The translations under genes and the position numbers were made by a program. Below, piece by piece: positions 684 through 1,754 of a stretch of DNA of 3,518 bases. The stretch is from a virus (Duplodnaviria > Heunggongvirae > Uroviricota > Caudoviricetes), in IMG/VR virus record IMGVR_UViG_2585427758_000017, positions 1-3,518 of that record, one strand, 5' to 3'. Numbering within the stretch: position 1 is the stretch's first letter; every line of letters starts with the position of its first letter. Under the pieces are notes generated by a model that was given only the letters and a program-made list of their open reading frames with translations, ran no database searches and was not told the origin of the DNA.

Positions 684-1427
684 ATGACCACTATTACCAA
701 AGAACGTATTGAATTGTTCATTAAAAATCCGCTTGAAAACGGGCTTACCCGTGGTGAACAAATGGAACTGGCACGGATTGCGCTGGCATCGCTGGAAGCA
801 GATCCAGTTAAACGAGTTAACTCAGATCAGATGCGCCGAGTCTGCTTAGAAGCTAATCGCCATTTAGATAAATATGACGCGATGGCGAAAGAGGTAAATA
901 AGTTGCTTGGACGCATCGCCCCGCCAGCGCCGGTAGTGCCGGAAGAAGCAACTCCGGAAAACGTAGAAATGCTCTCTGGCTATGTTTCCACGTACAAATT
1001 AACCGATAGCGAGCGCGATATTGCTGCCGAAATATGGAACGCCTGCCGCGCCGCCATGCTTCAGTCCGGAAACTTTCGGGAAAACAAGAATTCGTCAACC
1101 AATAATTTTCGGGAAATCGCGGAAACGTCAACCAACTATCCGGCAATTCCTAGTGAGGTGTTGTCCGCAATCCTGAAGGTTGCCAGGATTCGTGCCGATT
1201 TCGATGATTTTGACGGTGACAGGCGAGGTATCGGTGATTGTCTGGATGAGGCTGAGCAAGAGCTTATCGTTACCATTAACAAATATGCCAGTCAGTTGGC
1301 AGCAGAACCTATAGCGCCTAATGACGTTCGAGAGCAGACAGCCATTCCACAAGTTCCGGTAACTCCGGATGGTTGGATAAGCTGTAGTGAGCGAATGCCG
1401 GACGACAGGCAGGAGGTGAATCAATGA
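684..1427 (+). CDS. Hypothetical modular prophage protein (247 aa): N-terminal module paralogous to the 1..408 gene, internal tandem repeat linker, C-terminal region ending in a DUF551-like WIS..R.P motif
   Basis: ATG 684 is preceded by an AAGGAG Shine-Dalgarno (672..677) with a 6-nt spacer. It shares the 146-bp near-identical segment with the first gene. The C-terminal residues WISCSERMPDD resemble, from memory, the start of DUF551 found in lambdoid accessory proteins; this is not verified. Confidence 0.7.
   Translation: MTTITKERIELFIKNPLENGLTRGEQMELARIALASLEADPVKRVNSDQMRRVCLEANRHLDKYDAMAKEVNKLLGRIAPPAPVVPEEATPENVEMLSGYVSTYKLTDSERDIAAEIWNACRAAMLQSGNFRENKNSSTNNFREIAETSTNYPAIPSEVLSAILKVARIRADFDDFDGDRRGIGDCLDEAEQELIVTINKYASQLAAEPIAPNDVREQTAIPQVPVTPDGWISCSERMPDDRQEVNQ
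918..1063 (+). repeat. Copy B of the ~146-bp near-identical direct repeat (perfect core 934..1054)
   Basis: Same alignment as copy A. Flanking sequence diverges immediately on both sides. Confidence 0.9.
1071..1136 (+). repeat. In-frame tandem duplication, 2 x 33 bp (25/33 identical), encoding NFRENKNSSTN / NFREIAETSTN
   Basis: 1071..1103 aligns to 1104..1136 with conserved TTTCGGGAAA and CGTCAACCAA cores. It starts 8 bp after the end of the 146-bp repeat, inside the 684..1427 CDS. Confidence 0.8.
1411..1416 (+). promoter_or_regulatory. Shine-Dalgarno AGGAGG for the candidate micropeptide
   Basis: Exact AGGAGG, 7 nt upstream of ATG 1424. It lies inside the 3' end of the upstream CDS. Confidence 0.5.
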
Positions 1428-1507
1428 GCTGGCCTGATGCAATCGTAACTCTGGGGGTGGTATTCGCAGCAGCGTTTGTTGTGTTCTCGATTTGTCGATG
1501 GGGATAA
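1424..1507 (+). CDS. Candidate 27-aa hydrophobic micropeptide (MSWPDAIVTLGVVFAAAFVVFSICRWG), putative single-pass membrane peptide
   Basis: ATG 1424 is preceded by a perfect AGGAGG (1411..1416) with a 7-nt spacer, the strongest SD in the window. The start overlaps the upstream stop as ATGA. It has a 17-residue uninterrupted hydrophobic core followed by CRWG, and its TAA stop (1505..1507) sits 4 nt before the next ATG. It is absent from the ORF track only because of its length. Confidence 0.35.
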   Translation: MSWPDAIVTLGVVFAAAFVVFSICRWG

Positions 1508-1511
1508 CCAC

Positions 1512-1754
1512 ATGTTCGCTTTGATTCAACGCGGTCAGATATACACGGACAGAGCCGGATACCCCGTGGTGATTACTCGCATCACTGAGCACTCAGTGTT
1601 CTTTCGACGGATGGACGGACGATCCGGGCGGGTACGCATTGGTGAGTTAAACTGCCTGTTCGAACATATTGACCACCAGGAGTACCGCAAAATTCTCGCG
1701 GACACTGAGCAGGAAAAGCACCTGAAAAAATTACGAGCCATAAAAAGGAAGTAA
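1512..1754 (+). CDS. Small hypothetical prophage protein (80 aa, MFALIQRGQIYTDRAGYPVVITRITEHSVFFRRMDGRSGRVRIGELN...)
   Basis: The ORF-track entry 1476..1754 starts at a TTG with no RBS. The in-frame ATG at 1512 follows a GGGGA purine tract (1499..1503) and directly follows the micropeptide stop, so it is preferred. Resembles small proteins commonly found just upstream of xis in enterobacterial prophages (possibly DUF4222-type, unverified). Confidence 0.6.
   Translation: MFALIQRGQIYTDRAGYPVVITRITEHSVFFRRMDGRSGRVRIGELNCLFEHIDHQEYRKILADTEQEKHLKKLRAIKRK

Follow-up and report, generated by a model that had tools for sequence, protein, structure and literature searches.

A stretch of 3,518 nucleotides (nt) from the tailed-phage record IMGVR_UViG_2585427758_000017 (Caudoviricetes; the whole stretch is called the window below) contains an open reading frame (ORF) of only 27 codons at positions 1424-1507. 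This ORF is very probably a protein-coding gene under purifying selection. Comparison with related DNA makes us highly confident that it is real and that it is translated into a membrane peptide. On our best reading the micropeptide gene belongs to an unnamed family of accessory genes, and its product would be a single-pass peptide of 27 residues in the inner membrane. The same reading has the family moving as a 99-nt cassette, from the Shine-Dalgarno sequence (SD) to the stop codon. The cassette would travel among lambdoid prophages of Escherichia coli and Shigella, including those of Shiga-toxin (Stx) phages, P1-like phage-plasmids and a few large virulent phages. Taken jointly with the expression logic that we propose for it, the claim of a real, translated membrane peptide is likely to hold.

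A first-pass annotation of the window had placed a perfect AGGAGG, an ATG at 1424, an ATGA overlap, a stop codon and a 4-nt gap at this locus, and the sequence confirms each of these positions. AGGAGG occurs a single time in the window, both strands counted, and the spacer between it and the ATG (1424-1426) is TGAATCA (7 nt). The TGA stop of the upstream gene, which encodes 247 amino acids (aa), occupies 1425-1427 and overlaps the ATG of the micropeptide as ATGA. The TAA stop of the micropeptide lies at 1505-1507, 4 nt before the ATG of a DUF4222 gene at 1512. With an overlap upstream and so short a gap downstream, the ORF is indeed packed like a genuine cistron. The duplex between its SD and the anti-SD is predicted at -11.6 kcal/mol, and the other gene starts in the window reach -5.5 to -10.6 kcal/mol. 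Hence the SD deserves its description as the strongest in the window.

The chance of finding such an SD in front of an ORF in one sequence is about 0.09 (62 ORFs of at least 20 aa x 6 spacer positions x 4^-6). The evidence from the single sequence is therefore only mildly improbable, and the case for a gene rests on comparison. Comparison takes the finding far beyond chance.

We assessed how often the ORF is intact in three samples, none of which was selected on the body of the ORF. Anchoring on the DUF4222 protein yielded 79 intact copies out of 80. Anchoring on an 18-mer of the SD plus ATGA yielded 198 of 200, and among nhmmer matches over all 304 loci 290 of 294 had 27 codons. Intactness was verified in this way on about 300 copies, out of 1349 places in E. 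coli genomes. The exceptions are two single-base frameshifts and one premature stop. One frameshift (locus L011; ON470583.1, 1496-1606) is a 1-nt deletion directly after ATGAC, and the 36-aa frame found there is annotated as a hypothetical protein. In the other (locus L199, 1112-1196) the G-run at codons 10-12 is longer by one G. Both may be sequencing errors or genuine decay.

An SD core is found 5-20 nt upstream of the start in all 290 of the 290 intact copies (median duplex -11.6 kcal/mol). It is kept across 38 distinct upstream 22-mers, which include two unrelated sequence classes. The class ending in ...GTGGAGGATATTTTACG-ATG keeps the SD and otherwise has nothing in common with the class of the window. 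Start and upstream stop overlap as ATGA in 180 of 216 copies, and 13 more have a 1-nt overlap of the TGATG type. The first-pass annotation had held that loss of the SD or of the frame in homologous prophages would speak against a gene; both are retained.

Substitutions were analysed in a set of 56 distinct nucleotide variants that encode 33 peptides. For codons 7-23, which the search pattern left free, the mean column entropy is 0.58, 0.29 and 0.99 for codon positions 1, 2 and 3. Position 3 is more variable than position 2 (p = 9e-6) and than position 1 (p = 0.002). Because the copies are related and recombining, these column tests are descriptive, and so is the pairwise ratio of nonsynonymous to synonymous substitution rates (dN/dS, Nei-Gojobori) of 0.26 for all codons and 0.37 for codons 7-23. 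The other two forward frames have a dN/dS of 0.58 and 1.9 and contain stops in every variant.

Could there be no gene on the sense strand at all? The ORF would then be open by chance, reflect an antisense gene on the other strand, or belong to a conserved RNA element. Long antisense ORFs do span the micropeptide. The 154-aa ORF at 1128-1592 on the minus strand, whose frame is that of 'ORF C38' in Stx2 phage II, is interrupted by stops in 40 of 56 variants and has a dN/dS of 2.6. The annotated C38 is probably spurious. A second antisense frame, which shares its wobble positions with the sense ORF, is open in 55 of 56 variants and has a dN/dS of 0.27. So low a ratio is the expected echo of the shared wobble positions, and neither a start nor a stop is conserved in this frame, since the flanking sequences change from context to context. 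An RNA element might be seen in the conserved ability of the SD bases CAGG to pair with CCUG of the conserved Trp-Pro codons (codons 3-4; window 1409-1450). This pairing is weak (about -2 kcal/mol) and shows no covariation. Likewise the RNAalifold consensus reaches only -2 kcal/mol without covariation, and Rfam has no match. Only the sense ORF accounts for the three-base periodicity and for the conservation of ATG, SD and stop. We regard the absence of a sense-strand gene as extremely improbable. We chose the sense reading on the start, the SD, the stop and the module boundaries, not on dN/dS alone, which is also low in the open antisense frame.

The module boundaries follow from DNA similarity to other phages, which begins at 1409, two bases 5' of the SD, and in 933W-type phages extends to 1507, the final base of the stop codon. 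Sequence flanking the module on either side is unrelated between contexts, with at least five unrelated upstream genes and at least five unrelated downstream contexts. The upstream partners include proteins with Ead_Ea22 plus DUF551, proteins with DUF551 only, and four families without DUF551. Among the upstream genes are those for L0139 of 933W, a 114-aa protein of ArgO145, a 220-aa protein of Av-05 and an 86-aa protein of SJ46. The downstream contexts include DUF4222 at +4 (120 of 216 copies), a 78-aa gene of P1 type at +2, terminator-like hairpins, a toxin-antitoxin pair on the opposite strand, and hok/sok, which lies some 155 nt further on and has a promoter and 5' leader of its own.

The variety of downstream contexts bears on the idea that only the act of translating the ORF matters. 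The ORF would relay ribosomes from the upstream gene to DUF4222, and the peptide itself would be irrelevant. The ATGA overlap on the 5' side and the 4-nt gap on the 3' side would suit such a relay. So would the conserved TGG-GGA-TAA end, which resembles a weak SD, and the SD of DUF4222, which is the weakest in the window (-5.5 kcal/mol). However, constraint acts at the level of amino acids (dN/dS 0.26-0.37, a fixed length of 27 codons, preserved hydropathy), and about 45% of the copies lack a coupled downstream gene, having hok/sok about 155 nt off, hairpins or opposite-strand genes instead. Because hairpins or an independent hok/sok follow in some contexts, the micropeptide is not merely a bridge. 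DUF4222 also does without it: the diverged DUF4222 genes of P27, AU6Stx1, Klebsiella RAH1 and Stx2a_JNE090861 have no micropeptide upstream, and in P27 the gene's own SD is visible. A pure relay is thus very improbable.

The family is widespread. Conservation, which the first-pass annotation had proposed to check by tblastn, is borne out by 70 matching phage records (79 with blastn). They include 933W, VT2-Sakai, BP-4795, YYZ-2008, a P1-like phage and large phages of the Av-05 type. At least 120 IMG/VR contigs carry a homologue, as do 180 plasmids (E. coli 154, Salmonella 25, Klebsiella 1), mostly non-mobilisable replicons of about 95-100 kb and mostly P1-like. Of 5426 complete E. coli genomes at least 1007 contain the 99-nt unit, some of them as many as 4 times, and all 1032 matching E. 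coli records cover at least 80% of the 99-nt query. A scan of the K-12 Rac prophage found no copy of the micropeptide. Among GTDB species representatives true matches occur only in Escherichia/Shigella; the remaining ones are two tiny contaminant contigs and two chance matches. The two contigs are assigned to Xanthomonas pisi (L215, 431 bp) and Acinetobacter idrijaensis (L219, 369 bp). Their modules are identical to the 933W and P1-like types, and these copies are most likely assembly contamination.

The encoded peptides share the consensus M-x-W-P-(D/E)-A-(F/I/L)-x-x-(V/L)-G-(I/V)-(A/V)-(M/I/F)-A in the N-terminal half, continued by (V/I/A)-A-(L/F)-x-(V/L)-(Y/F)-S-(I/L)-(C/F)-R-W-(G/R/W). Gly11 is invariant in 17 aligned variants and present in 55 of 56 in the full set, and small residues occupy positions 13, 15 and 17. 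The most hydrophobic 19-residue segment on the Kyte-Doolittle scale is always residues 6-24, with a mean of 1.7-2.8 across all 36 variants and of 2.63 for the peptide of the window. By this measure the segment is hydrophobic enough for a membrane helix in every variant. The earlier description of the product, one hydrophobic helix with a short polar N-terminus and a basic/aromatic C-terminus, agrees with the hydropathy, and the C-terminal end is Arg/Trp. By the positive-inside rule the acidic N-terminal tail and the Arg-Trp C-terminal end suggest an N-out/C-in orientation.

Whether the ORF counts as unannotated depends on the database. None of the 4 RefSeq/PGAP records inspected has a gene at 1424-1507, and the same is true of the record of phage PhiR5_1. 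To this extent the earlier claim stands. It does not hold for GenBank as a whole, in which some records carry exact 27-aa homologues as 'hypothetical', 'bacteriophage' or 'prophage protein' (e.g. AOM45384.1, ETI78407.1, EIL24003.1). Calls of homologues with a longer start (43-57 aa) have also been deposited, all from Escherichia, such as the 45-aa WP_250221393.1. A homology search with the 45-aa version matched only Escherichia 'hypothetical proteins'. Prodigal has a default minimum gene length of 90 nt. The micropeptide, with 84 nt, falls below it, and this is why annotation pipelines skip it.

Family searches place the micropeptide nowhere. Pfam, NCBIfam, PHROGs, PADLOC, PDB and Rfam contain no match above threshold. 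The best scores below threshold are DUF883_C in Pfam (14 bits), KdpF in NCBIfam (14.7 bits, cut-off 26.85), and phrog_4612 and phrog_38566 in PHROGs (E = 0.02-0.04). Neither the variant of the window nor that of 933W is present in a collection of 15 billion proteins. The exo-xis papers examined (PMC10834534, PMC8614690) contain no mention of the micropeptide. A frameshift fusion of a DUF551 protein to the micropeptide was considered, since cluster mates are labelled DUF551, and was rejected. There are DUF551 proteins of 121 and 185 aa without the peptide, and 1391-1423 contains no slippery site. Entries of the form 'GGES-M...' are partial calls in the frame of the small ORF, not fusions of DUF551 and the peptide.

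Several points weigh against our reading. The open antisense frame described above is rarely interrupted and has nearly the same dN/dS as the sense frame. The pattern by which most variants were collected fixed eight codon features (including W3, P4, D/E5, A6, R25 and W26). The conservation of these residues hence rests on the smaller unbiased sets, and rare W3R, P4R, R25S and W26R variants exist. In the helix core a dN/dS of 0.37 indicates moderate constraint, as expected if it is chiefly hydrophobicity that matters. The peptide strings were not found in the full text of the searched literature, nor in the supplements of the Sakai Ribo-seq (ribosome profiling) and Pro-SMP finder papers. The Salmonella P1-like phage SJ46 (L225, about 1838-1912) encodes a 24-aa version, MSWPEAFAIVGVAMAIAAIFIFWG, without Cys-Arg.

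The SJ46 variant follows its extra 86-aa gene with a TAATG overlap. It implies that the family is broader than the strict search pattern shows. It also implies that the WPEAF head, G11 and the Ala ladder are the most durable parts of the peptide and that Cys-Arg is dispensable.

When would a gene of this kind be expressed? The region corresponds to the exo-xis part of pL, the early leftward operon: the micropeptide lies on the strand of xis-int, upstream of them and downstream of ead/Ea22-like genes. The exo-xis genes belong to the earliest transcribed ones, with ea22 the most highly transcribed of them in Stx phages (PMC10834534). Judging from this position and from the published transcription data, the gene should be silent in a repressed lysogen and transcribed among the first after infection or induction. 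The ATGA overlap suggests that ribosomes ending the upstream Ea22-type gene at the UGA would restart on the overlapping AUG. The very strong SD would allow ribosomes to load directly as well.

Hydropathy and charge suggest that residues 6-24 would then insert as a helix, leaving the acidic WP(D/E)A end on the outer side of the membrane and Arg-Trp on the cytoplasmic side. Insertion may follow a YidC-type route like that of the Pf3 coat protein. Pf3 coat also has a short acidic N-terminal tail, one helix, and Arg-Trp at the cytoplasmic end. The analogy concerns insertion only: Pf3 coat, unlike the micropeptide, is a 44-aa structural protein of the virion of a filamentous phage, and we claim no homology. 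Once inserted, the small-residue faces of Gly11 and Ala13/15/17 would pack on another helix, and the peptide probably acts through such contacts between helices.

Expression in this operon is difficult to reconcile with one proposed function, superinfection exclusion, in which the peptide, acting at the inner membrane as T4 Imm/Sp do, would keep rival phages from adsorbing or from bringing in their DNA. A predicted inner-membrane peptide could do so. Moreover, the gene is accessory (present or absent), widespread and horizontally mobile among competing coliphages, virulent Av-05-like phages included. However, to exclude phages from a lysogen the gene would require a promoter, and a consensus scan of both strands shows no sigma-70-like promoter site near the ORF, although the evidence from scans of this kind is weak. 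With its coupling to a CI-repressed operon and no promoter-like site nearby, the micropeptide should be off in lysogens. PADLOC has no match to the micropeptide and finds 0 defence families among it and its neighbours, and no sequence relation to Sie/exclusion or defence families was detected. The exclusion proteins described so far are much larger than 27 aa. We consider exclusion improbable.

A toxin, either membrane-damaging or host-inhibiting (Kil, type I toxin or holin-like), is less far-fetched, and we judge it unlikely. Upon derepression of pL its small-residue faces would bring peptides together into oligomers that depolarise the inner membrane or make it permeable. The Gly/Ala faces could support such oligomers. 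TisB, ShoB, DinQ and Ldr are similar in size and have a lone hydrophobic helix, and the same size class and architecture apply to type I toxins in general (Hok/Gef, TisB, Ldr, Ibs, ShoB, DinQ). The gene sits in a CI-repressed early operon, where lambda and Rac keep their kil genes, and hok/sok or other toxin-antitoxin modules are frequent neighbours. In 933W-type phages a true hok/sok locus lies about 150 nt downstream.

What distinguishes the micropeptide from a type I toxin is its regulation and its sequence. An antisense RNA, an own promoter and a structured, silenced mRNA were all sought, and none was found. For an antitoxin RNA there is no Rfam match at E <=1, no promoter-like site on the minus strand near 1400-1520 and no conserved RNA structure. 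In place of an own promoter and a fold that hides the ribosome-binding site, we see a start that overlaps the upstream stop (180 of 216 copies) and a consensus fold of only -2 kcal/mol. The SD is strong and exposed, and translation is coupled to the upstream gene. With such coupling to a highly expressed early gene, a toxin would probably depolarise the membrane at the onset of phage development, which would harm the phage. The micropeptide shows no homology to Hok/Gef or other toxin families. A polar or charged tail, as Hok, Ldr and TisB typically have, is missing from it.

Lambda Kil and Rac KilR resemble the micropeptide in being small, non-essential, encoded in the CI-repressed leftward operon and made early after induction. 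Kil proteins inhibit FtsZ, are soluble and are not known to contain a membrane helix, and searches of Pfam, NCBIfam and PHROG returned nothing above threshold that would relate Kil families to the micropeptide. The functional analogies of the first-pass annotation (type I toxin, Kil, superinfection exclusion) are not backed by these comparisons. We think that the micropeptide does not kill the cell.

In 933W-type phages the micropeptide is immediately upstream of hokW/sokW yet separate from it. In 933W itself (L003, 1501-1584 and 1590-1950) a promoter-like TTGCGG-16-TAGAAT lies about 40 nt past the end of the micropeptide, followed by the 5' leader of the hok mRNA (GGTGCTTGAGGC...). A different arrangement occurs at 15 IMG/VR loci (e.g. 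L020 on the minus strand, L033 and L017), where a second small hydrophobic ORF begins about 35 nt past the micropeptide stop. Preceded by an AGGAGG-type SD of its own, it encodes 34 aa, MSDDISLAMEGALAV[IV]AVVGVYCLVVFLMDRLGN. Beyond it lie a perfect palindrome and, further on, hok/sok, which makes three small membrane-peptide genes in series. Two gene calls of 74 aa (P0055 and P0056) are fusions of the micropeptide and the 34-aa ORF.

The micropeptide would work like the small single-helix membrane proteins, outside any named family. Small inner-membrane regulators of enterobacteria such as KdpF, AcrZ, MgtS, PmrR, CydX and MgrB share its build, in that they are shorter than 50 aa, have a single hydrophobic helix and lack an enzymatic domain. 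These regulators bind to larger membrane proteins and act in this way. Membership in the KdpF equivalog TIGR02115 is not indicated, as the score of 14.7 bits (cut-off 26.85) extends across 12 residues only. Unlike these regulators, the micropeptide is encoded by a phage, within an early operon, and none of the adjacent genes specifies a membrane partner. As a guess, possible though short of probable, we suggest that the peptide acts on a host inner-membrane protein by binding and modulating it, or assembles into small homo-oligomers, in early phage development.

The micropeptide might also be the membrane half of a two-part system, with the soluble protein encoded just upstream as the other half. 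To this we give little credence. Coupled synthesis would yield both parts in roughly equimolar amounts. The 27-mer would then tether lysis-lysogeny regulators of the Ea22/DUF551 type at the inner membrane or relay them there; the FtsH/HflKC machinery, which controls CII, is one possible destination. If this were true, the phenotypes published for ea22 deletions in Stx phages would in part be due to loss of the micropeptide.

The micropeptide shares its region and transcription unit with the exo-xis proteins (Ea22, Orf60a, Orf61, Orf63, Orf73, Ea8.5), and it is directly coupled to a gene of the Ea22 V2 (DUF551) type. The Ea22 V2 architecture is described in PMC10834534. The described exo-xis proteins are all soluble, unlike the predicted membrane peptide, and the word 'transmembrane' is absent from the exo-xis modelling review (PMC8614690).

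Features of the micropeptide locus and its direct neighbours (positions in the window)
Feature	Position	Strand	Basis
ead/Ea22-like upstream gene, 247 aa	684..1427	+	Pfam DUF551, PHROG matches
99-nt module from SD to stop (SD, start, 27 codons, stop)	1409..1507	+	limits of DNA homology, unrelated flanks
Shine-Dalgarno AGGAGG, 7 nt 5' of the start	1411..1416	+	unique in the window, conserved SD core
ATGA start/stop overlap with the 247-aa gene; translational coupling signal	1424..1427	+	read directly
27-codon ORF, product MSWPDAIVTLGVVFAAAFVVFSICRWG, predicted membrane helix at residues 6-24	1424..1507	+	ORF list, conservation, hydropathy
DUF4222 gene, start 4 nt past the micropeptide stop	1512..1754	+	Pfam DUF4222 8e-14

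All genes in the window point rightward, toward xis (a DUF1233 excisionase) and a tyrosine integrase. The window as a whole is a mosaic (best match 95% coverage, 99% identity). Its segment 1200-1760 is 100% identical to a prophage of E. coli B1-56 that adjoins yecE/yecN/cmoA. RefSeq names the 247-aa product 'DUF551 domain-containing protein'. In Pfam its residues 230-245 match only positions 1-16 of the 68 positions of the DUF551 profile. Most of DUF551 appears to be deleted in this gene, yet the ...QEVNQ* end, which bears the SD of the micropeptide, is retained.

A direct repeat of 147 nt (246-392 versus 917-1063, 98% identity) and a repeat of 44 nt (100-143 versus 765-808, 89%) connect ORF 1-408 with the 247-aa gene. 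They show these two to be tandem paralogous modules of the ead/Ea22-like type. Between DUF4222 and xis, at 1758-1904, lies a Cys-rich ORF of 48 aa (…YCREV…CCHCRG…) that is annotated as hypothetical. The sole family match of its product is phrog_3871, a family of unknown function.

If the micropeptide is translated, about one fifth of the sequenced E. coli genomes and the reference Stx phages 933W and VT2-Sakai carry a hidden gene. A phage micropeptide is unsurprising in principle, but this one is widespread, occurs in medically relevant Stx phages and is invisible to annotation pipelines. It adds a well-supported family to the poorly charted small membrane proteins of phages. Current work takes the genes of the exo-xis region one at a time to learn how they affect prophage induction and, through it, toxin release. 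Deleting the upstream ea22-type gene, or introducing a polar mutation into it, silently removes translation of the micropeptide and can confound ea22 genetics. A clean genetic handle is available: changing ATGA to ATAA keeps the upstream stop and abolishes the start of the micropeptide.

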